Virus record (IMG/VR): IMGVR_UViG_3300037087_000757
Direction: 5' to 3' (one strand)
Origin: an uncultured virus (IMG/VR IMGVR_UViG_3300037087_000757)
Lineage: Duplodnaviria > Heunggongvirae > Uroviricota > Caudoviricetes
DNA length: 64,000 nucleotides
The notes beneath the pieces were generated by a model. It was not told the origin of the DNA, did no database searches, and worked only from the letters and a program-made list of their open reading frames with translations. Each line of letters opens with the position of its first letter. Positions within the stretch are counted from its first letter, which is position 1. Shown here one piece after another: positions 4,065 to 62,227 of the stretch. Position numbers and translations under genes: made by a program.

Positions 4065-4073
4065 TAATATATA
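4065..4073 (+). promoter_or_regulatory. Putative late promoter TAATATATA driving the leader-tagged operon
   Basis: Motif recurs shortly upstream of most leader-tagged or structural-type genes. Confidence 0.65.
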
Positions 4074-4095
4074 CTAAAAAATAACGCCCACTAAA

Positions 4096-4416
4096 ATGAA
4101 ATACTTAAAATTATTCGAAGATTATAGTTCATTCGACCCATCTGGTATAAGTCCAGAACAAAGAAAAATTATATCAGACATCGTTAGAGATGGTTTTTTA
4201 GTTGCCTCTGAAAATTTCAGTGATGAATTGGAAAAAGGATTTGAAGTTCAACTTTCAACCTATGAAGGAGCTGTGGATGAAGAAACAATCGAAGAAAGAG
4301 AAGATAGTGAAAGAATTTTTAATGAATTAGCCGATAGAATCGGATCTGGTGAAAATGCTGGTATTATAGGTGCCGAACCCCTTAATTTTGAATGGGATAT
4401 AAGATGGGGTGTATAA
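4096..4416 (+). CDS. Putative internal head protein (CTS-like leader MKYLKLFE), acidic
   Basis: Leader motif; directly downstream of TAATATATA. Confidence 0.65.
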   Translation: MKYLKLFEDYSSFDPSGISPEQRKIISDIVRDGFLVASENFSDELEKGFEVQLSTYEGAVDEETIEEREDSERIFNELADRIGSGENAGIIGAEPLNFEWDIRWGV

Positions 4417-4432
4417 AAAATAAATTATAAAA

Positions 4433-4789
4433 ATGAAGAACATTAAAAAATTTCAAGATTTTATTAATGAAGATTCTATAAATGAATCTACCATTACAAA
4501 AATGTTTGGGGATAAAGAATATAAATTCACCGATACTCCAACCATGATAGGAGTGAAAATGTTACCGATTCCAGTTCAAGCTTTTGATTTTTTAAAAAAG
4601 GATCTCAATGATGAATCTAAAGTAGAGGAATTGGAGAATGGATGGGTTCGTTTAAAAGTTAAATCATATGGTGGTGAAGTTGTTTTATATTCACTCTCAA
4701 CAAAAGAGATGGTTTGTTTAGACCATCAACAGGGTGGAAGAATGGGAAGTGTTATGTGGGATTTTGTAAAAAATAATCCAATCGAATAA
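4433..4789 (+). CDS. Putative internal head protein (leader MKNIKKFQDFINE)
   Basis: Leader motif; second INE follows (DSINE). Confidence 0.65.
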   Translation: MKNIKKFQDFINEDSINESTITKMFGDKEYKFTDTPTMIGVKMLPIPVQAFDFLKKDLNDESKVEELENGWVRLKVKSYGGEVVLYSLSTKEMVCLDHQQGGRMGSVMWDFVKNNPIE

Positions 4790-4795
4790 ACTAAT

Positions 4796-5632
4796 ATGAT
4801 GACACATTTAAAATTATTTGAAGAATTTTATAATGAATCTATCACAAAAAGTGATCCAGAAAAGGATTATGAAAAAGTTCAAAAATATGATAAAAAAGAT
4901 CAATTAAAATGGTGTCAAATACTTTGGAATTATTATAATAAAACCCTATTTAAAAAAAAATTACCAAATGGAAATATCAGGTTCACTAAAAATATGGGAG
5001 ATAAGTTTAGTACAAGAGGGAATTATAGTCCAACAAAAAATGAAATTGGATTAAATGATCATTTATTTAATGCCACTTTTAATATTTTTAAAAGAACATT
5101 TCTTCATGAAATGTGTCATCAAGCAACCGCAAAAATTAGTGGTGAGGAAAAAGGAGGTCATGGTCCCACTTGGAGAAATTGGATGATGAAAGTTGGACTT
5201 ACTCCAAATGCTCTTGATATTGAAGCGAATGACACATATTTAAATGCTGATGAATTACAAAAAAAACAAATTAAAGATAAGTTAAAAGAAAAAGCCGTTG
5301 AAAAACAAACTCCGACATATCCATCAGAAAACAAATTTGCTAAATGGTTTAGTAAAGAAAATAATAAATGGAACTTGGGAATGATTCTCATACCAAATGA
5401 TCGAGCTGGTGAAAGATGGATATTTTTAAATATAGATGGATATGGAACAGCATATCAAATTGTTCCTTCAACTTGGTTTTTCGAGGTTTCACCTGAAGAA
5501 CTTAAATTATTAACTGATCGTAAACAAAATTTTGATGAAAGAGGTAGCAGAATAATTGAGTATAAAAATAAAAAAGATAGTCATAGAAGTGATATGAGAA
5601 GTCTAAAAAAATATTGGCGTTCTAATTTTTAA
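4796..5632 (+). CDS. SprT-like zinc metalloprotease with CTS-like leader
   Basis: TFLHEMCHQ (HExxH) plus GHGPTW, typical of the SprT family; leader MMTHLKLFEEFYNE. Confidence 0.8.
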   Translation: MMTHLKLFEEFYNESITKSDPEKDYEKVQKYDKKDQLKWCQILWNYYNKTLFKKKLPNGNIRFTKNMGDKFSTRGNYSPTKNEIGLNDHLFNATFNIFKRTFLHEMCHQATAKISGEEKGGHGPTWRNWMMKVGLTPNALDIEANDTYLNADELQKKQIKDKLKEKAVEKQTPTYPSENKFAKWFSKENNKWNLGMILIPNDRAGERWIFLNIDGYGTAYQIVPSTWFFEVSPEELKLLTDRKQNFDERGSRIIEYKNKKDSHRSDMRSLKKYWRSNF

Positions 5633-5635
5633 ATA

Positions 5636-6160
5636 ATGAGATTTATAAAAACATATGAAACATTTAACAATTCAACTTGTTATTATCGTTCTGAACCAAA
5701 ATTTCTTGGTGAATCATTTAAATTTGTTCCAGATGGATATTATGAAGCCATTGATGACAATAATGAGCCAAAACTTATATTCAATGAATACCGTGTTTCA
5801 AAAATACCAGAAGTATGTGCTTCAAAATATATAGGTGGATGCGTTATGGGTGGATTTTCAATGAATCATACGAGGGAATACTTTATATATGAAATTTGTG
5901 AAAAACCAGAGAAAGATATTTCACATTGGAGTAATGATGATTTTGAATATTTAGAAGAAGTTAGATATAGGCATACCGTTATCGGAAAATATATTGGTAA
6001 AGTAAAATTGACAGAATATCAAAAAAAATTATTTGAAATTTTTTATAAACATCTAAATTATCAATATGATGCTGGTGTAGATGAAGTATTTGATAAATAT
6101 TGGTCAGATATTGAAAATGGTAAATTAGACAAAGAACTGAAAAAAATTAAAGCGATATGA
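5636..6160 (+). CDS. CTS-leader protein, possible divergent ADP-ribosyltransferase fold
   Basis: Leader MRFIKTYETF; YYRS...VCAS...EEVRY arranged like R-S-E strands. Confidence 0.4.
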   Translation: MRFIKTYETFNNSTCYYRSEPKFLGESFKFVPDGYYEAIDDNNEPKLIFNEYRVSKIPEVCASKYIGGCVMGGFSMNHTREYFIYEICEKPEKDISHWSNDDFEYLEEVRYRHTVIGKYIGKVKLTEYQKKLFEIFYKHLNYQYDAGVDEVFDKYWSDIENGKLDKELKKIKAI

Positions 6161-6396
6161 AACACATAAAAGATTTTAAATTAAACGAAGATAAATCCAT
6201 TGACGGATTGAGACTTGAATCTATATTTTCAAATCTTACTGAAATAGATAATTTCAAAGAATCAATAGAATTTTTATCTTCTTTAAATCTCACAAAAGAA
6301 CAATATAATAAACTTGAAGAGATTATGAATAAATATGGCGAAGCTAGATATGATAGTGGATTTTCATCAGGTCTGGATTCAATGACAGAATTTTAA
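6157..6396 (+). CDS. Small CTS-leader protein (MKHIKDFKLNE)
   Basis: Leader nearly identical to that of 9230..9430. Confidence 0.6.
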   Translation: MKHIKDFKLNEDKSIDGLRLESIFSNLTEIDNFKESIEFLSSLNLTKEQYNKLEEIMNKYGEARYDSGFSSGLDSMTEF

Positions 6397-6411
6397 AATA
6401 AAAAATGATAT

Positions 6412-7311
6412 ATGAAGTATTTACAACTATTCGAAAATTTTAGTAAGGAAGATTTTAAAGTCTGGGATGAACTGTTTGGTATTCTCGATTGGAAATTCAA
6501 GTCAACCAAAAACGGTGATATGTCTTTAGATGGTGAATCTACCTATAACGAACTCAAAAATAAATTTCATTTAAAGAAATTTGAACAATATCTTGTTGAA
6601 TCGGTGGCTAAAGATCTGAAGGATTATATCGAAGATGAATATAAAGATGACTTAAAAGATGAATATGGTTTTTATGAAATAAAAGTCGATGATCCCGAAA
6701 AAATAAAAAAACAATTATTAAAAGATTTTGAATCTGGTATAATGAAAATAGATGTAAATGGAAAGAAATTGATAATTTTTAAGAATGATGCGAAATTTGA
6801 TTGTGTAATGTTATACGCAAATGTTGATAAGAAAATGTGGAAAGATATATTAGAACAAATTGATGAAGATGACCTTTACGAAGATCCTGAGGGTGTGGAA
6901 GAATATGGACTTGAAAAAGAACCTCATATAACGATAATATTTGGTATTCATTCAGATGAGAATGACCAAGAAAAAATAATGAAAAAATTAGAAGATTATA
7001 AACCGATTGAATTAAAAACTGGTGAAGTTGGTATGTTTGAAACTGATAAATACGATGTTATTAAGATAGATGTAAAACCAACAAAAGAATTATTAGCTTA
7101 TAGAAAAGATTTAATAGAAAATACAAAGAACACTCAAACCTATGATACATATACACCCCATATGACAATCGCTTATGTTAAAAAGGGCAAAGGAAATAAA
7201 TATATAAAGAAGATAAAGGTAGAAGAAATGGAATTGGAATTTGATACTATCAAATATTCTGATAGTAATTATAAGAAGAAAACAATTAAATTAACTCAGA
7301 ATAAAAAATAA
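6412..7311 (+). CDS. 2H phosphoesterase (T4 gp57B/Acb1-like) with N-terminal and internal CTS-like motifs
   Basis: Two HxT motifs (EPHITI, TPHMTIAY) preceded by CVMLY; leader MKYLQLFENF and internal HLKKFEQYLVE. Confidence 0.75.
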   Translation: MKYLQLFENFSKEDFKVWDELFGILDWKFKSTKNGDMSLDGESTYNELKNKFHLKKFEQYLVESVAKDLKDYIEDEYKDDLKDEYGFYEIKVDDPEKIKKQLLKDFESGIMKIDVNGKKLIIFKNDAKFDCVMLYANVDKKMWKDILEQIDEDDLYEDPEGVEEYGLEKEPHITIIFGIHSDENDQEKIMKKLEDYKPIELKTGEVGMFETDKYDVIKIDVKPTKELLAYRKDLIENTKNTQTYDTYTPHMTIAYVKKGKGNKYIKKIKVEEMELEFDTIKYSDSNYKKKTIKLTQNKK

Positions 7312-7313
7312 AT

Positions 7314-8522: not shown

Positions 8523-8558
8523 ATTTTTTATATATAAGTAAAAGTAATAATATTACAA

Positions 8559-8957
8559 ATGATAAAAAATTTTAATCAATTTCTCAATGAGAAAGAAATG
8601 TGTTGGAGTATTAAAGAAGAACGACCTATAAAAGTAAAAATTAGAAAAGCGACAGATCGAAGCTCAGGAAACTGGTGGTTGATTGGGGATTCCGAAAAAG
8701 AATATATTATAGAACCAGAACCGATGACAATGACTTATGAAACATATTATAAACTTGGTGATAATCTATCACAAGATCAAATTGATTATGGTTTGAGTAA
8801 TGGGAGAACTTATGATGAAAAAACTTTAAAATATCCAAATGATGTACATAAGGGAACATATGATTATTCTAATGGTGAAACATATTTTGTGGCACCAACA
8901 GAAAAAGATCTCGAAAACTGGTTGAATTTTTATAAAGATGTAGTTGTTAGAATTTAA
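8559..8957 (+). CDS. CTS-leader protein (MIKNFNQFLNE)
   Basis: Leader; TTATATATA at 8528-8536. Confidence 0.65.
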   Translation: MIKNFNQFLNEKEMCWSIKEERPIKVKIRKATDRSSGNWWLIGDSEKEYIIEPEPMTMTYETYYKLGDNLSQDQIDYGLSNGRTYDEKTLKYPNDVHKGTYDYSNGETYFVAPTEKDLENWLNFYKDVVVRI

Positions 8958-8968
8958 TATATAGTTTT

Positions 8969-11001: not shown

Positions 11002-14000
11002 ATAAAATGAACTTTTTTACCGTGTTCTTCTTTTAATTTTTTCTTCAAGAAATCAACAATATCATCCACAATACACTTCGGATTCAAATAACCATCGAAA
11101 TTAATTTCAGTGAATGGTTTTTCATCAATCGAACCGAATCCCTCAAATAAAACACCATTTGATTTCATCAATCCTTGTATCGGTTTCACTTCACCAAATA
11201 CAAGAACTTTATTTTCTTCTCCACTTATTTTATATGTGAATTCGGTCTTGTGTGTGGACATATTTAAAAATATTTCGAGATATAGGTTACATTATTCATT
11301 ATTTCTGCTCCCCAAATAATAAACCAGTATCCAATCAAATATGTGATAAAACCAGTGAAGAATATTAATCCTGTGCTAACCATTACACCAAAAATCTTAC
11401 CTAAATTATCCACCCCGAAAAATTTCCAAATACGTCTCCATACCCAATTGAATAGATGTTGAATAGAACAAAGAATCACAATTATACAAATGAATGCGAA
11501 TTCAATCATAGGTGGATTATTAACTTCTTCTGATTGTACGACCCATCCATTATCGAGAAATAAAGCAATTGACCATTTAATCAAAAAATATCCACACCAA
11601 TATGAAGCAATACCAGCAAATACACTAATCCAAAAATTTAATGTCATATCACTTGCTTCATCATTTGATCTCCACATCCAATTAATTAAATGCTGGATAG
11701 TGATAAGTATGGTCAGTACACAAAATATCGAAAATACTAACATATCTTTTTATTTTTGGTTAATTTTTTGAATCATGAATTCTTAAATAATCTTTGAATC
11801 CAAATGAAAATTGAGTGAAATTCAAACCGACATCTTCTAAGATACTCATTTCAGTGACCCATTCCATAGGAATAGGAAGATCAGCTTCCATATAACGATT
11901 GATGGCTTCATACAAACTTACTATTCGACCATGTACGAGATCAAATTCACACATACCACCATTTTCATTGATGGTGTTATCTATGACTTTCTCCCAATAA
12001 ATATGAGAGGGAATTACTCCTAATGGTGGTTTGTGAATCATTGAATACCATTTTTCGAAAAACTGATTAATTCTTCACCCAGAACTCTTGCTTCTTCAAG
12101 AGTTAAAGGTATAAATGTGGTATCCTTTGCATCAGCATTATGTTTGAGTTTCAATGAGATGTTTTGATAAGTTTTTGTGGGTTCTGTTAAAATAAGAATC
12201 TGTCCACTTTTCGGATAAATACGGGATTCGGAAATTCCTTTGGTTCTAAATATCTGAACCTTTTTGTTGTTATCGTCCATATTAAAATATTTTATCAAAT
12301 GTTCCACAAAAATATAAAATTACCAGAAGTATGATACAAAAGAATATCTTCCAATAATTATCGATCTTCGGCTGTATCAGTCGTGATAAGAAATGGTAAC
12401 TGAAGGATAATATAAATCCCAGCTACTACTAACATAAAAATTTGAAATCCTAACATATTAAATGTTTTTAAAATCGTCAAATACTCTTTTTCCTTCAGTT
12501 GTAATCCAAAATGTATTGTTGGGCCAATAATCGTGATAAACCCATCCTTTCTTAGCCAACTTACAAAGATAACTTCCACCACATAACCAAGCCGCCTTTC
12601 CTTTTGTGGACCCATTACCAGTATTCTTACTGGATGTAAACATATTGGTTTTAGTACCTTTCCACATAGCCTCAGCGAATCGTTTGGCGGAATACCTGTT
12701 GTCATAACCAGTATCCCTCAGAATTCCCAAAGCTTTATACTGAGATGGTGTTAAATGAATTTTTGTGAGATCTTCCATTACCTTTGTTATTCGAGGTCGT
12801 TTCCACCACTATTGATGGATTCCATGAGATCACCAAGATTGTTATATCCAATTACTTCATCCACGATTTCACCCCCTTCTGTCATGATTTGAATAACTGT
12901 CACATCATCCCTCAATTCAGTTTTGTAAAACAGATTGGGTTCTTCTGTGTGATGAATGTTGTTATCCTCATTGCTAATGTAATAGAGCTTTTTCATAATC
13001 AGATCGTTTTAGATTAAAGGATTAAGAATACAAAGGTAATATAATTTCCCGAAATAAAAAAATTATTTCCACTGAGATAATTCTGAGAGAGAATATTTTG
13101 AATTTATTTTATTGGCAATCCATTGTGTAGCTTTGTCAAAATCTGGTTCATCTGATAAATAATGATATTTCTGATCAGTCATCCACATCGTTATAATCCA
13201 TCCAATTCTTTTACTTAATCGAATTTTAAAAAGTTTATCAGATGTTATTTGATTCTCCAACCATTTCATAGCTTCTAAAAAATCATCGAGTCTATCTTCT
13301 TGATCTTCAAACTTAACAGTAGTATCACTCTTACTTTCATTTATCAAAATAAAAATAATTTCTTTCATTCTCTTATTTAACCTTACTGGAGAAACAATAG
13401 AACCTTTAGTATTAAACATAGCCAATCCTTCAGCGAAAGAACCTTTCTCTAATCCTAAAAATCCTTTTTCTTTATTTTTATTCCTCATCCGCTTCAGGAT
13501 CTATATAAGACCTGTTGATTTCAGAAAATTTATCCAATAATTCTTGATGTTGTTTATGTTCTCCACATTGAGGTGTCAGGTAATTAATATAGGGTGCAAA
13601 ATAGCCAGACATCGGATGTAAGTTGAATCTTATCGTGACCAAATCACAAATCAGCTTCCCGAAACGGGAAACATCCTTGGTGTAAATATCAGTTAGGTTT
13701 TTTGGCTTCGATTGCTGAGCTATTTTTTTCTTTACTTCAGGGGATAGTTTTTCATTTACTTCCTTAAAATATTCCTCCATATCATCATATATTGAAGAAC
13801 TTCTATCCTTACCCAAAATCCAAAATAAATGTTCACGATGAAAATGTTTGTCCATATGTTCCCATAATTGCCACATAGCCTTTTCACCGATCCACATTTT
13901 ATCTTCTGGAATTTTTATATAATGAGTAAGACAACATTCATCAGAATATTTTGAATTAAAATAATAAATAGAATTCTTTTCATGTTGCAACCATCTTCCA

Positions 14001-15529: not shown

Positions 15530-15560
15530 TAAATGTAAAACAAAATTTCCAAATAAAAAA
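15530..15560 (-). promoter_or_regulatory. Class I promoter-like motif upstream of the macrodomain gene
   Basis: TTTTTTATTTG-N12-TACATTTA, same spacing as the 13031 copy. Confidence 0.55.
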
Positions 15561-15700
15561 ATTAATGATGTAAAAAAATTTATATTAATTTAGATTCATT
15601 AAAAATATATATGACTTTATTTCAGTCTTTTATCATATTTGATGGATAAAAGCCATTTAAATATGGTTATATATAAGAACAAAAAATAATCAATTAAGCA

Positions 15701-16554: not shown

Positions 16555-17037
16555 TTATTCAGTTTCCCATTTTTCATTCAAAATGTTGTAACGCTGGTAT
16601 GTAATGTCCAGAGTTCCACCATAATTTGAAGAAAATTTAAAATAAATATACTTCGGGAGATTCAATCTCATTTCCTGTGCGTATTTCTGAGGCATCGAAA
16701 CATCCTTATTTCCAATGAACAGGGTAACTCTATCAAGAGACTTAATGAGTAAGTAATCACCCGTTCCACTGACGATGATTGTATTATTTTCAAGATTGAA
16801 TAAGGTATCACCATTAAAGGTTACAACATTCAAATTTCCCTGTATTAAGGTGAAATTAGTGTAGTTCTGAATGAAGTTGATATCAACGGGAGTTGGAGTA
16901 ACGGGTAGACTATTGAAGGTCTGTTCAAAAGTCATAGTGGGAGTTGGTGTGACCTGTTCATCTTTTTGTTTATTACAAGAAGTGAACACAAGAGAGACCA
17001 TCAAGGTCATGATTGTCAATAATGCGATTTTTTTCAT
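16555..17037 (-). CDS. Lipoprotein
   Basis: MKK + hydrophobic stretch + FTSC followed by NKQKD. Confidence 0.75.
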   Translation of the reverse strand: MKKIALLTIMTLMVSLVFTSCNKQKDEQVTPTPTMTFEQTFNSLPVTPTPVDINFIQNYTNFTLIQGNLNVVTFNGDTLFNLENNTIIVSGTGDYLLIKSLDRVTLFIGNKDVSMPQKYAQEMRLNLPKYIYFKFSSNYGGTLDITYQRYNILNEKWETE

Positions 17038-17090: not shown

Positions 17091-17122
17091 CAAAGGTATG
17101 ACAATTCTCCGAAATAAAAAAA
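17091..17122 (-). promoter_or_regulatory. Class I promoter TTTTTTATTTC-N12-TACCTTTG
   Basis: Shares GAATACAAAGGTA and CCGAAATAAAAAA with the 13031 copy at identical spacing. Confidence 0.7.
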
Positions 17123-19009: not shown

Positions 19010-19176
19010 AGGTTACTAAACTGGTGAAAAGAAACACATTAAAGAAAATCTTATCTAAATTTTTCATAAGAATTGTTTTCGTAAATATAAAAACAAATTT
19101 TGAAATAAAAAAATCTTTCGTTAAAAAATTAATATATAGAAGAAAAACAACCATCATATATGGAAAAAATAAACAG

Positions 19177-20654: not shown

Positions 20655-20682
20655 ACAAAGGGTATATATTAAAACTTTAACA

Positions 20683-22362: not shown

Positions 22363-22446
22363 ACAAGTATATATTTTTTTTAAGGAATGAAAATTATTTT
22401 TGGGATTCAGATTTTAATATATAAAGAAAAATAATACGGATCAATC

Positions 22447-24332: not shown

Positions 24333-25178
24333 AATAAATTTAAATTTAAACTTATTGTTTTTATTTCTTGTGTAGTTCTTTATATTTCTGATCAATATAA
24401 ACCAATTCCCTACGATGACATTCATCCATGATCTTCTGAATGTCCTTTTGAGAAATTACTTCTCCATTCGCGTCCATAATTACATAACCCTGTGATGGAA
24501 CACCCCAGATGGCTTTTACCAGATATTCTAACTCTCCTAAGGTTTGAATTGTATCTAAGGAAATAACAGAAGAAGCATCATAATCAACATATATCGCACC
24601 TCCTACTTGTTCATATTCAACTTCAACTATTTCATTCTTATCCGAGAAGATCCTGACATATAAATTCTGAGATTCATTAATCCTTTTTACATATCTTTTA
24701 TTGGTCTCATAATATGTTTCCAAACTAAACCCATTATCAATCAAAAACTTTTCTACATTTTTATCTTTTACATCATCATTATTAAATATGACAGAATTAG
24801 CATATCTCATCATAAGTTGCATAAATTTCAGCGGTGCAACATGATAAAATATACTATTAGGATCAGTACAGGGAATTTCTTTATATTCTGGTTGAGAATA
24901 TAAAAACTCTTTTACTTTTTCAATTGTATTTTCCATATTATTTATTTTCTGTTTAAGCACTCTGAACAATATAACTTTTCTAATCCAACATAATCATCAT
25001 CCACAATAAATCCTATGATGTTTTCACATCCATTACTACTACATTTTTGACGATGAACCACATTTGGCTTATCACAATCACACTTCGCTCCCCATAACGC
25101 GGATTCATACTCTTTTCCACAATTTAAACAAATATCTTCCATATCTTCCATATCTTCTTCCTTTCTATGCTTTTTTAA

Positions 25179-25645
25179 TCGAGTTATCTTGACTTCTTTC
25201 CGGTGTTTGACCCGTTACCCTATAAATCCCCATTCACATACAAAATCCACCTGAACACGATTCGAAATAAATCTTTCCCTCTCAATCATCCCGATATTCT
25301 CTATTAAATTATGAATCATAAACCTGTCTGAATCGGTCTTATCCCTTTTATCCATCAGTTGTCTTAATTCCCACTTTAACTGTACTAAATAATTTTCCAT
25401 GTATATTACCCTTTCTTTTTAATGTAATACCACCAAGCTATTAATAATATAATGTTCACTGGATTTAACCAATGATACCATCTCCAACCTTTTTCCTTTT
25501 CCTTTTCCTTTTCCTTTTCCTTTTCCTTTTCCTTTTCCTTTTCTTTTACCTCTGGACACATATCATCAATGTCATCAAAATAAATTTTATCTTTGTTCAT
25601 TATATCTCCGCTTTTTAATCGGTTATTCTGACTTTCTTCCGGGTG
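25179..25645 (-). repeat. Two intergenic copies of CCGGA-N3-AAGTCA motif (25179-25205, 25619-25645)
   Basis: Minus strand CACCGGAAAGAAGTCAAGATAACTCGA and CACCCGGAAGAAAGTCAGAATAACCGA. Confidence 0.75.
25491..25543. repeat. Hexanucleotide microsatellite (TTTTCC)x8.8 encoding (KE)n
   Basis: Direct reading of sequence. Confidence 0.95.
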
Positions 25646-25867
25646 CTGACAACACTACCCCTCTGACCTGTCCATTATCTTGTCATCTTCAATATCAAAA
25701 TAAAAATCCACACTCTCACTCCATTCATCATATACAGTAACCCTATTGTAACTGTTCTCCAACTCAACATCATACTTTATCTTCAATTGAGTCAATGTGT
25801 CTTTCATTAATTGTAAATCCGTCATATAAAATTACTTCACATTCCTTTTTTAATATATACATTCATT

Positions 25868-27867: not shown

Positions 27868-27932
27868 GATGATTATATATTAAAATTTGTTATAAAAAAT
27901 TAATATATAGAAGAAAAACAATTTCTCTCGTT

Positions 27933-28289: not shown

Positions 28290-28339
28290 TATACATATAT
28301 CATATAACTCATTATAAATCAATAACATATAATCAATAA

Positions 28340-28600: not shown

Positions 28601-28679
28601 TAGTCGAATTTAGATCCCTTGAGGATTGGATATAAAGCTCTTGACCATTTGGAAATACGAAATGAAAATTTAATATATA

Positions 28680-30456: not shown

Positions 30457-30496
30457 ATATATATATATTAAACTTTTGTTGTATTATTTCATATAA

Positions 30497-37507: not shown

Positions 37508-39676
37508 AATTTTGTTTTTTATGATTTTGAATAAATATAAGTAATTGTTCTGGAATAAAAAAATATATTCAAACAAAGGGGTGTATTTTTTATATAAATA
37601 GAGTGTGAATTGTTTATCAATAGATATAAAAAAAGATTAAGGATGGAATTAGAAGAGATGAAAAAATTAGGTTATTCTATTGAATTTCCTATGTTGGAGA
37701 AGATAGAGGATTTAATATATTACGAAGGACCGCTTTTATCTCTATTTAAGAGGAAAGATGAAGATATATTCTATTTCTATTATTGGATAGATATGGATAA
37801 GACTTCTAATAGGTGGTTAATTTTTGAAGTATCTCAGGATGATATAACTAATTTTAAGGAGAAAAATGACACCATCATTTTAAAGGATTTGATTTTAAAA
37901 TCGAATAATTTATGGATTGATGATATTTCTGATGGTTTGGATGATTTAAATGATTTAAATCATGATTTTAGATATGTAGAAAAGAAAGAAATTATTAATT
38001 ATTTAAAATATAAGGTATGAAAAAGGTCAAGTTAATTAAGTTATTTGAAGCTGAAAATCCTCGTCATCCTAATAATATTCCAGAGGGTTTTGTTAAAGAG
38101 GGATATCCAATAAATGAACCAACGGTAGGTGAATCATTTCTTATGAATACTGATGATGGGGATGGATGGCACACTTCGATTGTTCAGGAAATATTTGAGG
38201 ATGGTACATTCAAGACTTTTAATTCTATTTATAAAATTGTAAGAGAATGAGATACATAGCTAAAATAGATAGAAGAATAAAAGCGAGCATGAATGGTAAT
38301 TGGATACTTCACTCATATGGTACTACAAAAAAGAGACCAAGAATTAAAAAAATAATTCGAACTGATACTAAAATCATTCTCGAAACAACATAAAAACAAT
38401 GAGTCCAGAGAAAAGAGGGATTAAAGTAGAACATTTTCCTATGTGGATACAATTGTCTAATCCACATTTAAATGATATTTTAAATCAAGATGGATACTTA
38501 TGTCTTAATAATTTGACAAAACAAGTTTATGTAATGCCATACAAAAGGAATAAAATAAATCAATAGAATATGGTAAAACCGATTAAACCGAATGAGGTTG
38601 TTAGTATTAAACTGGATAATATTCCAGATGAATTGATTGAAGCGATTAATGAATTAATCGTTAAGAAGTGGGACGGATATTCCGCTGTAGTACTTCAAGA
38701 AGATATTGAAAAGCTATTTCTTAAAAAATATCCGAATGTAAAGGAAGCTAAAAAGAAGATGTACGAAGAACACTGGATGGATTTCGAGGATATTTTTCGT
38801 AAAGAGGGTTGGTCTGTTAAGTTTGATAAGCCCGGCTACGATGAATCTTATGATGCTTATTTCGAATTCAAGCCAAAAAAGAATAAAGAAGGTTTCGAAG
38901 CAAAGGACTAATTATTTTTTAATTTTTAGAGTGTAGTTATTTTTTTATTTCGGATATTTTACTTATATTCATTTCAATTGTAAAATGACTTTATATGAAA
39001 ACACAAGAAGTAATAAAGTGGGAATCTGGTGCAGATTATTCAACAAAAACAATTGAACTATTAACTAAGAAGTTAACGGAATTGATTGGAGAGGGATATA
39101 CTATTGATAATGTTATACCAACAGAATATTACGGGAGTAATATCGCGTGTATAACCAGAGCACTTATCATTGTAAGTATATAGAAAGGGAAATAGTTATG
39201 ATGATATTTAGTGGATGTGTATTATTATTTCTCATTATAGTGATTATATTTTTTGGATCAAAAGGTTTGAGATAAATATGAAGCCTATATTCATGTTCAA
39301 AATTTATTAAAAGATAAAACGAATACTACTTATTATATCAATGAATATAAACAAATAGAAGATTAAAAATGATAACAAGAGAACAAATAGAAAACGCCCT
39401 TACTGATGATAGGGATAGTGTTTTCAAACAAGACGAGGATCATGGAATGAAGGTGGTCACACTTTTAAGAAATAAAATACCGTATTCCGAATGTCATAGT
39501 ATACTTGTCGGGGCATCACACGATCAAATATATCTACCTGATATTGGTATGATTATTAAGTATATTGATGAGAGTGATTTGTCAGTTCTTGTGGATTGTA
39601 ATTCGTTTATTGACGAAGATAATGATTGTCTTTCATTATATGTTTAATATGTTTAATTTTAGTAAGAAGTAAGTGT

Positions 39677-47749: not shown

Positions 47750-48151
47750 ATGAAAAAGTTAATTGGATTAGTAGTAATGATAATGATGTTTATCGGATTT
47801 GGTTGTACCAGTGGTACGACAACATTAAAGAAAACAGAAAGTAAGGAAAAGTATCAAGGATTTAATGTTTGGGTTTATGAATTTGATGGATGCGAGTATG
47901 TGAAATTTCCATCATATAACGCAACTTGGGGTGCACATAAAGGGAATTGTAAAAATCCTATTCATAATCAACAAAAGAGGGTGGATATAAAGTTTTATGA
48001 TATGGATGGTAGTTACAGGGGTACTTGCTCTATTGATTCTGTTGTTATAAGTTACAAAACCAGAAAGGTTTGTTGTTGGTCTCAGGGTAGGATAGCGTTT
48101 GAATCCGTATTAAAAGATATTGGGATTACAATGGTAGATATAAAGAAGTAA
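47750..48151 (+). CDS. Lipoprotein
   Basis: MKK + hydrophobic stretch + GFGC. Confidence 0.6.
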   Translation: MKKLIGLVVMIMMFIGFGCTSGTTTLKKTESKEKYQGFNVWVYEFDGCEYVKFPSYNATWGAHKGNCKNPIHNQQKRVDIKFYDMDGSYRGTCSIDSVVISYKTRKVCCWSQGRIAFESVLKDIGITMVDIKK

Positions 48152-51100
48152 AGGGGGATATTATGGATTGGAAAGAAAAATTAATTCAGAAATATAGAAA
48201 AGTATTGGGTTGTAAAAATTTAGATTTTAATGTTTGTTGGTGTGAAGTATGTACCAGTATAGAAAAAATAATCAACGCTACAATTAAACATATCAAAGAC
48301 AAAATTTAATAAGATGAAAACAAATGAATCAATGATTGGAAAAAAAGTGGAAGCTGAATTTCAAGATGGAGATAAATTAATTCTCACGGTTGATGAGGAA
48401 TGTGATAATGTGCCATTTGTTATGAGGGGGGTGTCTGAAGATAAAGTACTATATCATGTAGGTATATTTTGGTTTAAGGAAAAGAATATTTGTACTTGGT
48501 GGTATAAAGATTTATGTAAAGCAATATAATAATATGGAAAAAATAATAAAAGAAGATAACAGTACAGGAAATCGCCTTTCGATAGAAAAACTGGAAAATG
48601 GTAATGTAGAAATATGTATAAAGGATAAAGTTCTTGGTTTGGCAATAGATTTAAATCACGAAGAACTAAGAGATTTTACTTTACAAATTAATCAAATGTT
48701 TTTAGGTTTGAATAAACCAATTAATCCTGATCATAATGAAACCCCTTTATCTAAAAAAGTAAAGGAATTAATGAGAGAAGGTCATGTTCCTTATAATGAA
48801 GTAGCTACGGTTCATCCAACTTGGTCGAGTAGAGAGATTAGTGATTATATCAGTAATGTTTGTTATGGATAAAGATCTTTTTATATTTATTTGTAAATTA
48901 TTTTCAAGTGCTATAGCTTCGTATTTTTTTGTCATTCTGGTATATTATCATTTCATGGAAAAGATAAACAAGGATGGGGAGTATGATTCACTGATTATGA
49001 TGTTGACAGTTCCCGTTGGTATTTTTTCTTTTATTGGTTTATATTGGTTAAGTTTCTTTTTATTTGGACAAACAAGTTATTAAAGTATATGAAAAATAAT
49101 ACCCAACATTTGGAATTCATTTATAGACGAATGATTCATGTTCACGGTGAGAATCCCAATTATGATTATATGATAAATTTCAAGAAAGCTATAGAGGAAA
49201 ACATTGAGAGATTCATTATATGTTATAATTACAATGATGATATGATGATGTATGATACAGTAAAAAAGGAATTTATTTTATCAGTGAAAGGTGGTGGATT
49301 TCCGAAGGATTGTCATGTGGATTTTGAAATTCTTCCCCAAACAATTCAGGAACTTAAAAAAGTGGCTGAAAAACAGGATTTGAACGCTTTCACTGTTCAT
49401 GTATTAAAGGAATATAAAACAGGTGAACCATGTCCGATAGCGATATTTGAAAAAGATTTAGAGAAATATTAAATAAATATGGAAAAAATAACAAAAAATA
49501 AAAGACTAACAAAAAGACAAAGACTTTCAGTTTATAAGAGGGCGTTAACATTTATTGAAAATAATGCTAAGAAAAATAGTGATGGTGTTTATCATTCTGG
49601 TTTATGTTATGCTATAGGTCAATCGACTTCAACTTTTTTTTATCTTGAATCTTCTGAATTTTTTCCTGAAATTTACAAACATAAACCAAAGAAACCTTGG
49701 GGTATTTTTTGGTGGGCCCGCACAAAAGAAGGTATGGATAAGCGTATAAAAGTTTTAAAATTAGTAATTAAAGAATTATCTTAAATATGGAAACAAAATA
49801 TTATTTTATCCCTTACAGATGTAAAACAACATCATGGCAGAAAAGGTCAGAGACCGAGGGTTACATATATATCAGTTCACACGAACAATTATATCAGAAA
49901 ATAACCGATGTTCATCCTATAAAGTTTCAATTAGATTGTAATGAGAAGTATGAAAACATTATTGATGGTGATTATCAAAGAAAGGAAGAATATTTGGTGT
50001 TGAATTGGATACCATTAACGAAAGAGGAATACGAGGAATTTAAAGGAAAGGTAGGATGAGAAGAATAATAAAATTGTTAATATTTATATGGCTTTTATGG
50101 TGGATAATTGGAATAATAAAATTTGTGATTCTACCATGAAAAATTTACAAAAATTAAATTAATAAAAAGAAAGATAGTGGAAAAAATAATAACATATTTT
50201 GGTCAGAAAGCCAAAGTTGGATGTGATGAAAAATGTAATAAAGCTTGGGGTCGTAATCGTAGACCGAGAGTTTATCCAACGATAAATGAAACCAAAATTT
50301 TCGGTTTAGAAGGGGGTAGAGTTTATCCCGATGATTATAACGAAGAAGATTATGTTTATTGTTCTGATGATGAATTGGATAAAGCACCCGTAGATCCAGG
50401 CACTTATGAAGGTTCAGATGGTAAACCAGTTGGTAAGAAAAATATTCCCAATAAATGGTGTGTAAGAGAATGTGAAAGATGTTCAATGTCGAATCTGGGA
50501 GAAATTGATAAGCTACTTACATTACGAGATTTCTCAAAAAGAGTATAATATGTTATGGTGTGATTTAGAAGTGGGTGGAGTAATATACTATTGTGATTTC
50601 AATATGAATTCTCCAGAGGAATTCCCCAAAGAATTAAAGATACTCAGTATTGAAAAGGGAGAAGAAAACTTTCTTATACTACTTGAGGGATTAGATGATA
50701 TAATTGAATTACCGTTTAAACAATATTTTACTCAGAATAATGGTACGGATTTCAGTGGAGATGTTACTGCCTTTCATGTAATAGCAGCTGATGTAGATGG
50801 ATTCTGGGAACAGTTTAATAGTATTAGAGATGCTGTTAAAGATTTTAAAGATTTTATTACTGAATAATTTTTAATTCTCAATTTTTTTACTTATATTTAA
50901 TTTAGAGATGTGGATAATATCTTATCCGAAAATAATTGAAAATATTAAAAATGAATTAGATAAGGAAAAATGAGAAAAGCTATTTATGAATGTCCGAATT
51001 GTGGTCACATTGATACTGTAACATTAGGTAAAGGTAAAAAACCTGAGGAGGAGAGAATTTGTTCTTATTGCTATCCTGAATCTGGTGGATATTTTGTTAC

Positions 51101-52339: not shown

Positions 52340-55286
52340 ATGGAACAAATCAATTGGTCAGATGAATTAATGAGTTTATGTGTCGTGTATTGTCAGATGT
52401 TCAATACCGAACAAGAAGCCAAAAGAGCCACAATCGAACAAAGTAGAATATGGTATACGAGAGCCTATCAGATTAATAAAAAATTATTCGATGAACAATT
52501 GGAGAAAGTAGAATCTTTATTGAAGAAATCTTTTGAAGCCGGTGGAGATTGTTTCGTTGATGGTATTGGTGAATTGATAAGGAGAAATCCAGATTTTGAA
52601 AAATGGTTTAATAACATTGAGAAATGACAGAAGAAGATATTATTGGATTGGTATTTAAATGTCTTTCAATGACAATAAAAGCTGAAATAATTTCGGGTTA
52701 TCCAATTATAACAGGAAAGAAAGAATTTCAAAAGGAACTCGAAAAAGAATTGAAAGAATTGTTTGACGATAATGATTTATCAAAATGATCTCGTGGCATT
52801 TAGTATTGTTTATTTTGGTGGTACTTTTCTTTGTATATAAGATTTTTAGAAGTAACAAAGAAAACGGGTATAGTAATTGGGATTTTATAACACCATTATA
52901 TGTTATCGGTCTTGTTGTGACTGTTATTTTATATGGTGGTATTTTTTGGTGGTAAAAAGAAAAGAATATGATTATAAAATTTGGAAAAGAACTAATCAAT
53001 ACTGATAATGTTTTTAGAATTGTCCATGTAGATAGTAAATTAATAGTTCAGGGAAATTCTGAAAGAGAATCAATTTTATGTTTTAAAAATGAAGATTCAG
53101 CTAAATTTATTTTGGGTCGTATATATTGGAGTGTGGAACAACATTATTCAGTAATGGATTGTGATGAATCACTTGAAAAAAGAGTAGGACAATAAATGGA
53201 AAATAAAATTCAATTTAAATATAAACCCACTGGACAATGGATTATCTTTTCTGGGCATAGATGGGTGTTGTCGAATGAACCAGATTCAGAGGATAACATA
53301 TATGAATACATCAATGAGATTATATCTGATTTGAAATGTTCATTCGATGATATTGAAGTGATTGGATATAAAATGGAATCAGATGAAGCTGATGATTTAT
53401 TAACACAGATTAGATCTGAAGGATCGTTTGATTATACTTTTGAACACTATTCAAATTTTGAAAATATTAAGGATAGTAGGTTTCATGAATTGAGATTAGA
53501 TTATTTGAGAGCAAAAAAAGAATTGGAAGATTATATAAAATGGTGTAGTAATGAAAGAGAATGAGAATAACAATTTAGAAAGAGGTGATGTCGTAGTGGC
53601 CACATGGGGATATAACGATGTATTAAATGAACCGTTTAAATTCCTTTATGAATTTGGTTATTATACTAAATACGGTTGTGTAGTTTACAATCAGGGAGAA
53701 TCTAATATGCAAGATTCTCACGCTTTCAAATTGAATGAAATTAGGTTGGCAACAGATGAAGATAAACGAAATCAGTTTTGGGGAAATTAAACAATAATAA
53801 AATAAATTATATGAAAAAGGTAAAAATTAAAAGGTCAAAGAAACAGATCAAGAGTTTGTTCAAAAAAGCAAATAAGCACATTGGAACATTCACTGGTGAT
53901 ACTTATGAAAATGGTATTTTGAATACTATCGAATGGTTAACTGGTAAGAACAAACAGAATCCAATGAAAGGATATAAAAAATTACTTGAAAAGGATGAAG
54001 AAGCTCCCGTTGTTGAAAAGAAAACTGATACTCCAGAACCGGGTACAAGAGAAGGATAACAGTAATGGAAGTAACATTAAAACATAAATGTCAAGGTAAG
54101 GTTGTTAGTCAAAGAGCCAAACGAAAAACTCATAAATGTTTTAGTTATAATGAACATGCTGATATGCACTATGATAGTGGTGGTTGGAATGAATGGGAAG
54201 AAGTTTATTATGAAATAAACGAATGTAAGGTGTGTGGTCAATATCATGAGATAAAAAAGAAAAGATAAATGAAAACGAAAACGAAAATACATCCAATACT
54301 TAAAGAAACAATTAAAACAGCTGAAGCGTTGGGATTTAAATATAGGGCTGATGGTGTAGATTTTTTACAAAATTGGGTCACATTTACTTATCCAAATACC
54401 AATTCCTATGTAGTTTATATTGATCTTTCTGGTACGGGGGATATAATGAAAAAATTAGGTGATGAATTGGTGAAATGTGGAAAGATTCAACTAAGACAAA
54501 AGTGGAATCATGAATTCAATGAATTTAATTACGAGGAGGAATAATGAAAAATAATGATGTTAATTTTTATCCCGAATATAGAGATATTGTTAACGCTTGT
54601 AAAACCATAATTTATTCAAGTTATTCAAATCCGAGAATGATTGAGGAGATTATGGGTGAATCTGAAGCAAAAGAATTAAAATGTAAATGTCAATGTTTTC
54701 TTGATAAATGGGAAGTATATAGAAAAGATTTATTTGAAAAAATTTTCCAAGAAATTGAAAAATTTAAAAAACTAAAATACTAAAATAATTATGAAAAATG
54801 ATATGACAAACGAAGAAATTCGAAAGGCCGTTGATTCTGGTAAAATGAAAATATTTGACATTCCTTTGGATGTAACAGATGATTTCATTGATATATGGAA
54901 CTCACCAGAACAATTAATATTAAGAGAAAAAGGTGGAATGTTCGTGGATATAAAGCGAACTAAGGATGGTATCAATGTTCTTTCGATAGGATCACAACCA
55001 GAATACGCATTGGTAATGATTGGAATGGCTTATGGAGCTGGTGGATATAAATTAAACGCCTTTAAAAATATTGGAAAATTAAAAAACAACATAGATATGA
55101 AAGAATTAACAAAAGAAAACGCGACATTTGAAGAATGGACAGACAGGTTCATTGAAATTCTTGGAGAAAATGGATGGGTAAACCCAGAACTTGAGAGAAC
55201 CAATATGGAATGTCGTAGGGAATTATATGATGAGGGTGAAACCCCAGAATCAGCTTATCAGGAAGAATTAGTTGGTGATTGATTAT

Positions 55287-58700: not shown

Positions 58701-60186
58701 AAATTAAGATGGGATAGATGGAAGAAACCTCATCGTATTACTATAAAGACTCTTTTGAAAACCATTATGGAGAAAGAAAAGGCCGAACTTGAAGATACAA
58801 ATAAAAATTCAGATACAACCGTTTATCTTTTCTATTATTAGTATCCGTCCTTTCTATTAAAACAATTTGGTTTAATGAGAATAATGTAGCTTTCTTCAAA
58901 TATAAAGAACCAATTGTTTCTCTGAAATATAACAACAATGGAATATCTGGATCATTTATGCTTGGTTCTGGTAGTGTTGAATCCACAAGATATTATTATT
59001 TCATGAAATCCAATAACGATGGTTCTTACTCAGAAAGTAGGGTTATTGCACAAGATAGTAAAATATTCGAGGACGCGGATAGTCTTAATCAACCTTATGT
59101 TGTTAGAACATACATATATAAAGTATTTACATCATTGAAATATTTTATATTACCATCTTCGAAAGGTACAGTAAGTGTTGAGGGAACTGGATGTAGCTGT
59201 TCGGGTAATAATAAAGTGGAAATTCATGTACCAAAAGGTACTATTATTCAGGAATATCAAATTAAATTTTAACATGGTATTATAATGAAAGAAGATAGAG
59301 AATATATCAGATTAACTTGGCCAGATTATCAGTCATTGATGGAAGAACATAGTTCGGAATGGACTGAGGTTGCTTCTTTTGGTGGAACAGATGTACTTGT
59401 TCCGAAAAAATGGGTGATTGAACAAAGAGTAAAAATCAGAAAAGAAAAGAAATCCAAAATTGAGATAGAATTAAAAGAATATTTTAAGGGAACATACATA
59501 AAAGAATTCAGATTAAATGATTATACAAATATGATTGGTGAAGATTGTATTGAAATCTTTTCACTTGATCCCTATTTCGATGAAGATTATGATGGAAAAT
59601 TCGATGATGATATTGATAAAATTGGTGAGAAATATAATATTCCATTGAGTTTCGATAGTGGATCTTATGGAAAATAAAAATAAGCGAGAGAGATGAATAA
59701 AGAATTTACAAGAGGTTGTGATAAAGATATAAACAGAGAAGGCTGGGGAACAGTGATGATGATATTCACTCTGGCACTGGGTTTCTTCTTTTTTTATGTT
59801 CGTTTTTTTGAAAGAAAATATTATCTGAATAGAAAACTATTACTGTATCTATTAAGAAATAAAGAAATCACTCTTAAATATATTGGCCCTATTGGTAAAT
59901 CTTGGGATATTGATGAATACCAATTTGAGTATCATGATAAAACATATATAATTTGGCATTTTTACAAAAAAGGAGAATTCACCTTAGATTTGGGAGAATA
60001 CAAAACAACATTAAAAATGTTTTTTGGCAAAGAAGGTTTATCTGGATTATTTATTGGTGATTTTGTTGAATATTTTAGAGTTAAAAAGATATTAAAATAT
60101 TTTAAAAAAACAGATCAGACATTCAAAATTGATGACAATAAATTAAAAATTTGGTAATATCAATCTCTTTAATCAACTTCTAATTT

Positions 60187-60208
60187 GGGGCTAAATGCCC
60201 CTTTTTTT
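60187..60208 (+). terminator. Intrinsic terminator
   Basis: GGGGC-TAAAT-GCCCC followed by T7. Confidence 0.8.
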
Positions 60209-61374
60209 ATTTTAAACAAAGACAGGAAAAATGATTATATAAAATAAAAAGTTTATCCCGATGTCAGATGTTGAGATAAAATTGGAACAAGCCAGTAAAT
60301 TATTAAGTATGGGTAAGTTACCAGAGAAATCAGAGAACTTCATCAATTCACTTAAAAGAAAAAAGAATATCAGAAGATTGACAAAAAGACAATATGATTG
60401 GTTAAGTCAAATAGCTAATCAATACCATGAGGTTACTATTTTCAGGGGAATAAAAGAAGAATCCGAACCAGAACCAATAATTAAAAAATACGAGATTCAA
60501 CAATCAGAACCTAAATCAGATGATTGGTTTGATAATCTTTAAAAAATAAAAAACAGATATGAACGATTTATTAAAAAAACATTTTACCGAAGAAGAATTC
60601 AATACTATAAAAAATAATGGAAAGAAAACGGGTCTGGATCTTGGATATCTTTGTAAGGAATTAAGTAGGAAAAAAATTCCAAATGGATTTAAAAGAAATT
60701 ATCCCGGTGGACCAGATGAACAAGTATTTTCGGAAATTATTGAATCTGTCTATCTAATAAACTATTTTGACGGAGAAGAAAATTTTTGGAGAATTGAAAT
60801 TAGAGACGGACATGGAATGTCTGGTTATTCTGGAACATCTGGTGAGATCCCAAGATTTCAAGAAAATCCAAATATATTTTATGGATTTGGTGATGTATAT
60901 GGTGAATTAAAACCTTTTTCTGAAAGTAAGAGAAATAATAAAGCCATCAATAATCTAAAAATAACTGATCGATTAGAGAATAATTTTTTGGCTCCTGTAT
61001 TGATTTATTTAAGAGAACAAATTAGTGGGGGGTTATCGAGTACATCAGATGAAGAAAATAAATTTGTCGTAGAAATATGGAGATCTTGTTGTGTTGAAAG
61101 ACATAATAGTAATCATGCTGGTGATTTGATTATGACAGAAAAGGAAATATTAAATAATTATCTTTACAAAAAATAAATACAAAGTATGGAAGGTGTAGAA
61201 GTAAAAATATCTAAAACAACAAAAGCCAATACACCCTATGGATTTCATTATAAAGCCAAGGGAGCTTATGTTCAAGGAAAATATATAATTGTGGTGGGTG
61301 AATTGAAAGAGAATAATACTATCAGAATTAAATATCCTAAGGATGATGTGGAACTAAAATTTTTTTAAAACGAA

Positions 61375-62121
61375 TTATAAAATTTTTTCAGCATAATCGA
61401 AAAAATTTGAACCGTCTGGATTTAATTTTGGATTATTTCTTTTATCAAATTTATAAGCTTCTTTGAAATATAATTTACCATAGTTGGATATTGAAGTTCC
61501 ACATTTCATTATTTCAATTTTCCAATAATCAGAGAGGTATTTATTTAATTTCTTACCTATATCCGCGAAATCTGAGTAATTATCAGAGTCACTACATTTT
61601 TTGTATTGTAAAGGTGTTAAAATATTTTTACATTCATCGAGAAATCTTTTTATTTTATTTTCATTCCAGTTATTATATAAGTAAGAAATAGGTTCATTAG
61701 ATAGATAATTATCTAATATAAAATTCATTTTATCCTTGACTATTTTTGTACCATAATTAATAAATTGACCAACATAATCTTCATCTGGCATAACATCGGT
61801 AAATCTATTTTCATCAATAATAAATAAATATCCAAATTCACCAGCTTCCAGTAGAGGTTCAACATCCATTGAATATCCAACCATATTGGCACCAAGAATA
61901 TAAATAATAGATTCCTTTAAATTAGGAGTACAGTAAGTTCTCCCGACATCCGGTGTAATTTTACCGCCTTTTTTATCATTTTGATTCCCCGGTTTTAAAT
62001 AACCATCTTTCATTATTTTTTCACCTAATGTCGTAACGGAACATCCATGATAATAGGTAAACTTTATAGAAACAGTTTCAAAAAGTTTATAATTGGTAAT
62101 TAAGTATTTATTTTCATTCAT
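61375..62121 (-). CDS. His-type ART-like protein with CTS-like leader
   Basis: YLITNYKLFE; YYHGCS...IMKDGYLKP...TYCTPNLKESIIY...GYLFII; TTATATATA at 62156-62164 (minus); lone counter-oriented gene in the arm. Confidence 0.6.
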   Translation of the reverse strand: MNENKYLITNYKLFETVSIKFTYYHGCSVTTLGEKIMKDGYLKPGNQNDKKGGKITPDVGRTYCTPNLKESIIYILGANMVGYSMDVEPLLEAGEFGYLFIIDENRFTDVMPDEDYVGQFINYGTKIVKDKMNFILDNYLSNEPISYLYNNWNENKIKRFLDECKNILTPLQYKKCSDSDNYSDFADIGKKLNKYLSDYWKIEIMKCGTSISNYGKLYFKEAYKFDKRNNPKLNPDGSNFFDYAEKIL

Positions 62122-62227
62122 ATTTATTTAATTGATTCATTTTAATCATCATGTGTATATATAAATTTTTTTATAAAACTTTGTTAGAAAGTAGAACTAA
62201 ATATATGATAAAAATAATCACAAATGA

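Follow-up and report, generated by a model that had tools for sequence, protein, structure and literature searches.

Late promoters of phage T4 are read by the sigma factor gp55 together with gp33 and the gp45 clamp, and the promoters of extracytoplasmic function (ECF, group 4) sigma factors are usually GC-containing and bipartite. According to the account in PMC1524935, T4 late promoters carry TATAAATA at positions −13 to −6, and relatives of T4 often have A or T at −13. In phage phiEco32, as outlined in PMC12276001, the phage sigma factor gp36 reads AATGTA centered at −11.5 in middle/late promoters. Here, we analyze the nine-base motif T(A/T)ATATATA in a 64,000-nucleotide stretch of DNA (hereafter, the window; GC content ~30%) from an uncultured Caudoviricetes virus (IMG/VR record IMGVR_UViG_3300037087_000757). 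The motif is real, strongly non-random, orientation-specific, and conserved in the largest known phages, and it is probably the core of a phage-specific, virion-gene-biased promoter that has T4-late-like geometry and whose candidate reader is an ECF-like sigma factor.

The motif resembles T4 late promoters in that (i) it is one AT-rich −10 element of the octamer type, apparently with no strong −35 element, and (ii) a single position separates (T/A)ATATATA, its last eight bases, from (T/A)ATAAATA. It differs from them in that it is not TATAAATA and has a T run and an additional 5′ T that is conserved; TATAAATA itself occurs at just one high-scoring site of the window (38234, minus strand), which faces no open reading frame (ORF). 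The motif form TAATATATA is one base from TAATGTATA, which we take to be a longer form of the phiEco32 element. In phiEco32, a phage-encoded, divergent two-domain sigma factor redirects the host core polymerase to a short AT-rich −10-type element (PMC12276001), and the same role is predicted here for a phage sigma factor. The two systems have no detectable sequence relationship, and the phages differ in genome size, in lineage, and in the phylum of their hosts; a gp79-like partner is not known for the motif. A full-text literature search for the 9-mer returned unrelated papers only.

The window protein encoded at 28686–30017 corresponds to P0001, a 443-aa database form found on contigs of up to 736,551 bp; therefore, the window is taken to be a piece of a ~737-kb megaphage. 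No near-identical DNA was found in the phage collection, and an exact 35-mer of the window had no match in IMG/VR. The relatives of this phage include LR756501.1 (735 kb) and three other genomes of >634 kb, which Al-Shayeb et al. (2020) place in the Mahaphage clade with predicted Bacteroidetes hosts (PMC7162821). LR756501.1, a complete 735,411-bp genome published in 2020, was reached via its sigma gene, and its genes are longest-ATG-ORF calls made in this analysis. No account of Mahaphage promoters was found in the literature searched; the sole mention of “promoter” in the bioRxiv preprint of the 2020 paper concerns CRISPR targets. The motif would be the −10-type core of a promoter class of the ~737-kb phage and its megaphage relatives. 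This promoter would drive a non-early regulon composed of virion genes (portal, prohead protease, terminase, baseplate, and tail fibers in LR756501.1) and of genes whose products begin with an M-x-x-F-x-x-F-E leader (leader-tagged genes).

Placement of the motif in the window

The palindromic TTATATATAA is matched on both strands, and the 22 strand matches of the motif in the window therefore collapse to 17 distinct sites. Whole-window shuffles contained 10.8 ± 3.9 strand matches (largest 20), and none of 100 reached the observed 22. The raw count is thus only modestly above the shuffles, and the real signal, and the stronger test, lies in placement and orientation. At 16 of the 17 sites, an ATG ORF of at least 40 aa begins 0–38 nt downstream in the orientation of the motif. 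The 17th site (88–97) faces, in its minus orientation, the ATG at 73, whose ORF exits the window at the left edge; every one of the 17 sites therefore points at an ATG within 38 nt. A sense motif is located within 45 nt upstream of 13 of the 157 longest-ORF genes, and 1,000 dinucleotide shuffles of the same stretches gave 1.5 ± 1.2 (largest 8).

Base composition does not reproduce this placement. A first-ATG ORF of at least 60 aa lies downstream of TAATATATA in 10 of its 11 occurrences, compared with 819 of 5,550 occurrences (14.8%) in an AT-matched control of all 512 A/T-only 9-mers, and the reverse complement of TAATATATA precedes an ORF start in 1 of 11. A-rich 9-mers precede ORF starts in 30–55% of cases in the window. 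Divergent neighbors each own one copy of the motif, at 27874 on the minus strand and 27901 on the plus strand. The AAATATATA variant occurs 8 times in the window; 2 copies, described below, face genes and the other 6 face none.

The window contains an internal contrast. An arm of 85 small-ORF genes (34790–61370), mostly on the plus strand and presumed to be the early region, has no exact motif: motif-bearing genes account for 16 of the 72 genes outside 34.8–61.4 kb and for 0 of the 85 inside (Fisher p = 1.4e-6). The initial annotation had named equal frequency of the motif upstream of early-arm genes, after correction for AT content, as evidence against a late promoter; the counts for the presumed early arm are far lower. 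All 16 exact sites that it had listed are present, the one given as about 30460 being 30462–30470 on the minus strand.

On the plus strand, TAATATATA at 4065–4073 lies 22 nt before ATG 4096 (MKYLKLFEDY) and heads a run of leader-tagged genes starting at 4096, 4433, 4796 (SprT-like protease), 5636, 6157, and 6412 (2′-5′ RNA ligase/Acb1-like). TTATATATA at 8528–8536 lies 22 nt before ATG 8559 (MIKNFNQFLNE), and TAATATATA at 8955–8963 lies 5 nt before ATG 8969, whose 85-aa product has no leader; the next gene, 9230, is leader-tagged. TTATATATA at 15667–15675 precedes by 25 nt the ATG of a C1 peptidase (15701; Peptidase_C1). The TAATATATA site with the highest matrix score in the window (19.3) is located at 22415–22423, 23 nt before ATG 22447 (165 aa), and those at 25851–25859 and 27901–27909 lie 8 nt before ATG 25868 (MIKSFRIFES; weak ART-PolyVal match) and 23 nt before ATG 27933 (MKNLKPYSKFE), respectively. 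At 28671–28679, TAATATATA abuts ATG 28680 and lies 6 nt before ATG 28686, the start of P0001. PHROGs and Pfam put names on few window proteins, and those behind motifs or in motif-headed runs include the ones named here and below.

On the minus strand, the leftmost site is TTATATATA at 89–97, palindromic with 88–96 and 15 nt from ATG 73 (matrix score 16.7). TAATATATA lies 6 nt before ATG 27867 (MITRFTLFEA, 482 aa) at 27874–27882, which forms the divergent pair with 27901; 5 nt before ATG 30456 (MHMFTLFEDY) at 30462–30470; and 8 nt before ATG 33217 (83 aa) at 33226–33234. TTATATATA at 32939–32947 lies 21 nt before ATG 32917 (MKTFEQFISE), and TTATATATA at 62156–62164 lies 34 nt before ATG 62121, whose product has a leader-like NYKLFE at residues 10–15; a 12-codon upstream ORF starts at 62152.

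Three further sites bear on start codons that the initial annotation had moved. Starts 20654 and 33478 are supported because the motif sits inside the longer ORF call: TAATATATA at 20663–20671 (minus strand) lies 8 nt before ATG 20654 (MITSFKIFES, 331 aa), and TTATATATA at 33464–33472 (plus strand) lies 5 nt before ATG 33478, which begins a 299-aa Gly_rich_2/phrog_2295 protein. Start 19177 is plausible; TAATATATA at 19130–19138 (plus strand) is 38 nt away, with a 7-codon upstream ORF at 19160. Both near matches of that annotation are real AAATATATA sites, at 22368–22376 (minus strand), 5 nt before ATG 22362 (MRIFESQ, 559 aa), and at 34394–34402 (plus strand), 15 nt before ATG 34418. The position matrix used for window scores was trained on exact-match sites of LR756501.1 and judges near matches unfairly, so the two sites are plausible but unproven. 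A candidate one-mismatch site, TAGTATATA at 4068–4076 (minus strand), lies 51 nt before ATG 4016 of the minus-strand run 109–4016 and scores weakly (10.0).

The motif in megaphage relatives and the genes behind it

In LR756501.1, the motif was found at 180 of 1,003 genes, compared with 11.6 ± 3.4 (largest 21) in 200 shuffles, and 223 of its 263 distinct sites fall inside the non-coding 7% of the genome. TAATATATA occurs in the sense orientation in 121 upstream stretches and in antisense in 11. In the four >634-kb genomes, the composite TAATATATA-N5-ATG is found 26, 24, 28, and 10 times, its backwards version 1, 0, 1, and 0 times, and the version with the reverse-complement motif 1, 2, 4, and 2 times. 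The signal is thus clade-wide.

The initial annotation had described the motif as tracking leader-tagged genes. The leader pattern, sought within the first 22 residues, was found in 81 of 1,003 LR756501.1 proteins and in 6 of 960 at an internal control position. Leader genes are enriched for an own motif (32/81, compared with 148/922 other genes; odds ratio 3.4, p = 2.5e-6). However, they are a minority of targets: only 32 of the 180 motif targets match the pattern and 148 (82%) do not, and 7 of the 17 window sites lie ahead of genes whose products lack a leader, as judged by reading N-termini by eye. The link is therefore one of enrichment and not of identity, and the independent DNA-level support for the leader family that had been claimed is weak. 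Leader genes 4433–6412 and 9230 follow a motif-headed gene in a run. The short N-terminal tag of the leader-tagged motif targets resembles the capsid-targeting sequence of T4 internal proteins.

Conservation was followed at orthologues of the 28686–30017 protein, whose relatives were collected from 71 metagenome loci and 29 IMG/VR loci with the 13-sequence alignment A2 as the query (alignment A1 was too divergent). Fourteen loci have a GC content below 0.36, and one of these does not include the start of the gene. Among the remaining 13, the 9-mer lies 5 nt before the orthologue ATG in 7 and 26 nt before it in 1, and it is missing in 5 (L005–L008 and L042); it is absent from high-GC relatives of the locus. 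In the eight aligned upstream regions (the window and the 7 gap-5 loci; 37–70% amino acid identity of the orthologues; source contigs including 346 and 205 kb), the sole invariant block is TT-W-ATATATA, followed by 5–6 nt and the ATG, and the flanks are scrambled. The record behind locus L073, a 78,010-bp IMG/VR entry (GC content 25%, completeness estimate 11%; hereafter, the 78-kb relative), has a sense motif within 50 nt upstream of 24 of 119 ATG ORFs, and many of the products have leader-type N-termini.

These comparisons bear on whether the motif could be a functionless by-product of AT richness or of the copying of one promoter-plus-leader cassette. Copying would fit the longer flanks, aaaaatTAATATATAgaagaaaaacaa, that sites 19130 and 27901 have in common, and many targets are paralogous leader genes. 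Yet composition-matched controls fail to reproduce the signal, orthologous flanks have fully diverged around an invariant 9-mer, and most targets in LR756501.1 carry no leader, so that we give this explanation a near-negligible chance.

The enrichment upstream of virion genes that the initial annotation had proposed to look for was found in LR756501.1. Of its 290 proteins of at least 250 aa, 272 were scanned against PHROGs, the 18 dropped ones spanning 20-kb fetch boundaries. With gene sets sorted by hand from PHROG descriptions, 8 of 16 genes for virion or lysis proteins have an exact motif in the 80 nt before them, compared with 3 of 38 DNA/RNA-metabolism genes (Fisher p = 0.0012). The 8 genes encode the portal, the prohead protease, the large terminase, a baseplate wedge protein, three tail fibers, and an adaptor-like protein. 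Allowing one-base variants raises the count to 10 of 16 by adding the major head protein (AAATATATA) and another fiber (p = 6e-5). All 3 motif-bearing metabolism genes encode endonucleases, and none of the 35 non-endonuclease replication and nucleotide-metabolism genes examined has the motif; in LR756501.1, an own copy is absent from the genes for polymerases, DnaB, SSB, UvsX, RNR, ligase, TK, ThyA, and primase.

Homing-endonuclease genes, or small helix-turn-helix ORFs right upstream of them, often bear the motif, as at 242570–243358 (minus strand), 144430–145230 (plus strand), and about 718041 (minus strand) in LR756501.1 and at 2782–2937 (minus strand) and 54144–54296 (plus strand) in the 78-kb relative. 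It seems that mobile endonucleases hitch their expression to the putative late promoter.

The gene classes also bear on whether the motif marks ordinary promoters read by the host primary sigma factor throughout infection. The AT-rich, −10-like character of the motif and its spread along the whole of LR756501.1, at about 5 per 20 kb, would suit such promoters, which are nevertheless scarcely probable here. The motif is absent from the 35 replication and nucleotide-metabolism genes and from the 85-gene arm. The primary-sigma consensus of Bacteroidota, TTTG at −33 and TAnnTTTG at −7, is unlike the motif, which does not contain TAnnTTTG; the latter lies within 70 nt upstream of 15 of the 180 motif-headed LR756501.1 genes, and a separate TAnnTTTG-containing element is present in the window (described below). 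Bacteroidetes are the hosts predicted for the >634-kb phages in the account cited above (PMC7162821).

Candidate sigma factor, promoter architecture, and start-codon spacing

The reader of the motif would be the host RNA polymerase core with a phage-encoded sigma factor. The gp55-like sigma factor that the initial annotation had suggested searching for was not found: phrog_234, the family into which T4 gp55 falls, had no match in 147 window proteins, in the 78-kb relative, or in the complete LR756501.1. A single kind of sigma-family gene was found, and it is ECF-like. LR756501.1 carries one Sigma70_r2 gene and no more; Sigma70_r2 and Sigma70_r4_2 domains are both present in its orthologue from the 78-kb relative, and the family comprises 64 homologues, including some on contigs of 597,284, 735,411, and 736,551 bp. 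P0041, a 57% identical homologue, is on a 736,551-bp contig, the same figure as for the longest P0001 contig. Residues 23–181 of P0041 match the solved structures of SigW (5wuq, E = 2.6e-8), sigma-H, and sigma-E, of which SigW is the nearest. P0041 thus resembles ECF sigma factors such as Bacillus subtilis SigW in structure and domain composition, differing from them by ~100 extra C-terminal residues, and the motif is unlike usual ECF promoters. This conserved ECF-like sigma factor is the candidate reader of the motif.

By the tests run, the motif is not a member of the gp55-dependent family, neither its consensus nor a gp55-family sigma factor having been found, and the candidate sigma factor differs from gp55 in having a region-4 domain. 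The earlier description of the motif as an analogous late promoter holds in part: the motif is orientation-specific, appears to have no strong −35 element, has T4-late-like geometry, and is preferred by virion genes over replication genes in LR756501.1, but the gp55-like reader is missing.

The motif could instead be the promoter or initiator of a divergent phage-encoded RNA polymerase, with the start within or beside it. Many huge phages encode polymerases of their own, for which one AT-rich element at a strict spacing would be a fitting signal; the search for a T7-like polymerase family was uninformative, since its control gave no match in any genome. However, the RNA polymerase beta-type domain PF00562 is absent from LR756501.1, about a third of whose proteins were scanned against families, whereas the control rang in 14 of 14 genomes. 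In addition, the clade-conserved sigma-family gene implies use of the host core. We consider a polymerase of this kind unlikely.

From 5′ to 3′, the proposed promoter would comprise a weak A-rich/TGR signal (~12–20 nt upstream), a short run of T, the 9-mer itself (about −14 to −6), a spacer of five bases, and an initiating A; its likely readers are the host core and the ECF-like sigma factor. At the 180 sites of LR756501.1, counting from the motif, T is found at −1 in 151 and at −2 in 120, positions −14 to −12 have a weak T-G-R preference, and −20 to −17 are A-rich; positions −12 to −20 carry at most 0.39 bit each, in addition to the T run at −1 to −3. The base directly 3′ of the motif is rarely T, and the sixth and seventh bases after the motif are A in 154 and 130 sites, respectively. 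Among the 17 window sites, T is at −1 in 14 and the sixth base is A in 13, and upstream of the motif no clear pattern is seen at this sample size. G directly follows the motif in 20 of the 26 TAATATATA-N5-ATG sites of LR756501.1 and not so in the other three >634-kb genomes, which may be a lineage-specific discriminator preference.

The conserved A six bases past the motif falls where the +1 of T4 would be, as in the geometry of T4 late promoters (PMC1524935), and the motif is like these promoters in having virion genes downstream. The distance to the ATG at the 180 sites is exactly 5 nt in 34, 6–8 nt in 16, and 9–14 nt in 8, with a broad mode at 15–26 nt; the ~fifth of sites exactly 5 nt from the start codon differ in this from T4 late promoters. 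If the A is the start site, the gap-5 class would give leaderless mRNAs beginning with AUG, and the second class, with gaps of 15–26 nt, would give mRNAs with short A-rich leaders of ~10–20 nt. A few extra 5′ bases spoil leaderless initiation. The near-empty zone of 9–14 nt would be expected if short stubs spoil both modes of translation start. The gap-5 class thus resembles leaderless mRNAs in that the predicted start falls on the A of ATG and gaps of 9–14 nt are rare, and it differs from them in that the start position is predicted from the sequence alone. The literature searched gave no example of a phage late regulon with a promoter-coupled class of leaderless mRNAs.

The same spacing bears on whether the motif acts in RNA, either as a processing site that trims polycistronic RNA near start codons or as a translation aid without Shine-Dalgarno pairing. 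A location 0–38 nt from start codons on a specific strand would suit either role, and A-rich 9-mers are enriched there too. However, (i) divergent genes have one copy per direction, in gaps beyond the reach of an upstream same-strand gene (27874 on the minus strand with 27901 on the plus strand; 4065 on the plus strand); (ii) there are two discrete gap classes and a conserved A at a fixed +6 regardless of the distance to the ATG, which fits a transcription start site better than a ribosome signal; and (iii) the motif heads gene runs rather than each gene. An RNA-level signal is very unlikely in our estimate.

Several points weigh against a virion-gene-biased promoter read by the ECF-like sigma factor. 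Half of the virion and lysis genes (8/16) have no exact motif of their own, and this hand-sorted comparison comes from LR756501.1 and not from the genome of the window. The genes for the primase, a second polymerase, the clamp loader, and the sigma factor itself are one gene downstream of a motif-headed small ORF, and the motif also precedes genes for a ResIII/DEAD helicase and a transposase in the 78-kb relative. ECF sigma factors usually read bipartite −35/−10 promoters, whereas the −35 zone here holds at most the 0.39 bit per position given above. The presence of the sigma gene in this phage rests solely on the 736,551-bp figure shared by P0041 and P0001. Sequence is the sole basis for the start site, timing, and polymerase proposed here.

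Other features of the window and implications

Apart from the glycine-rich protein, the window has no recognizable capsid or tail gene, and tRNA and Rfam scans of the window gave no matches. The region 28290–28680, directly upstream of the 28671 motif and likewise without a tRNA or Rfam match, is unusually GC-rich and gene-poor and contains repeated GCGC...CCCAAAAAAA(A)TTT units.

The 28686–30017 protein contains NNIITTFNSFISYMNE between its N-terminal and C-terminal domains. The C-terminal domain has homologues that are leader-tagged proteins in their own right (such as P0011, which begins MITKFQLFE), and in alignment A1, N-domain relatives (~250 aa) end in ...ITSYK(L/V/A)FE plus 2–6 residues; leader-type sequence is thus not solely N-terminal. 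The leader tag may serve as a signal for cleavage or targeting, between domains as well as at the N terminus. The N-terminal domain (TPGA...VSRYQKPEQ...RTGVFYLPE) is conserved in phages that span 25% to 70% GC and in other phages is joined to a domain of the ADP-ribosyltransferase (PF03496, PF18760) or lytic transglycosylase (PF01464) type; it resembles a widespread module that carries enzymes destined for injection or packaging.

A second promoter-like element, TTTTTATTT(C/G)G(G/A), has 5 exact copies, at 13049–13060, 15548–15559, and 17109–17120 on the minus strand and at 38942–38953 and 49057–49068 on the plus strand; with one mismatch allowed, it has 17 copies, compared with 10.6 ± 2.8 expected. 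TACCTTTGTATTC, which contains TAnnTTTG, follows it by ~12–14 nt at 13038 and 17098 (both minus strand). The second element is possibly a host-type (early) promoter class. TAnnTTTG as a general early promoter in LR756501.1 was rejected, with 88 sense and 68 antisense upstream stretches and no clear signal.

Small proteins encoded at 16555–17037 (minus strand), 31478–31819 (plus strand), 36258–36509 (minus strand), and 47750–48151 (plus strand) begin with signal peptides that are lipoprotein-like and have ...S/T/G-C at their end (MKKIALLTIMTLMVSLVFTSC, for instance), which fit a Bacteroidota-type host. Similar GC-richer stretches, ...CACCGGAAAGAAGTCAAGATAAC.CGATTAAAAA.GC..., are located at 25152–25214 and 25601–25654, upstream of neighboring small minus-strand genes ending at 25151 and 25600, and constitute a repeated element.

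Uncultivated phages of 600–740 kb have ~1,000 genes each, most of them without a function by annotation and none with expression data. A clade-wide promoter of fixed geometry would allow their genes to be sorted, from sequence only, into a late or virion-associated regulon, and the motif would also help to fix start codons, mark transcription units, and pick candidate packaged proteins. The conserved ECF-like sigma factor is named as a testable candidate for the switch, and the geometry of the motif predicts a leaderless class of late mRNAs.

It is quite conceivable, if somewhat short of probable, that the largest known phages run their late program through one simple promoter that, at roughly one target in five, starts transcription precisely at the A of the ATG. 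Leaderless mRNAs would then make up a whole class of late messages, among them those of many enzymes that bear the leader and are probably packaged in the capsid. Translation factors have been reported in these phages (PMC7162821). If the prediction is true, the promoter and these factors would together provide a private route from the phage's own sigma factor to the favored translation of the phage's late mRNAs in a host that makes no use of Shine-Dalgarno pairing.

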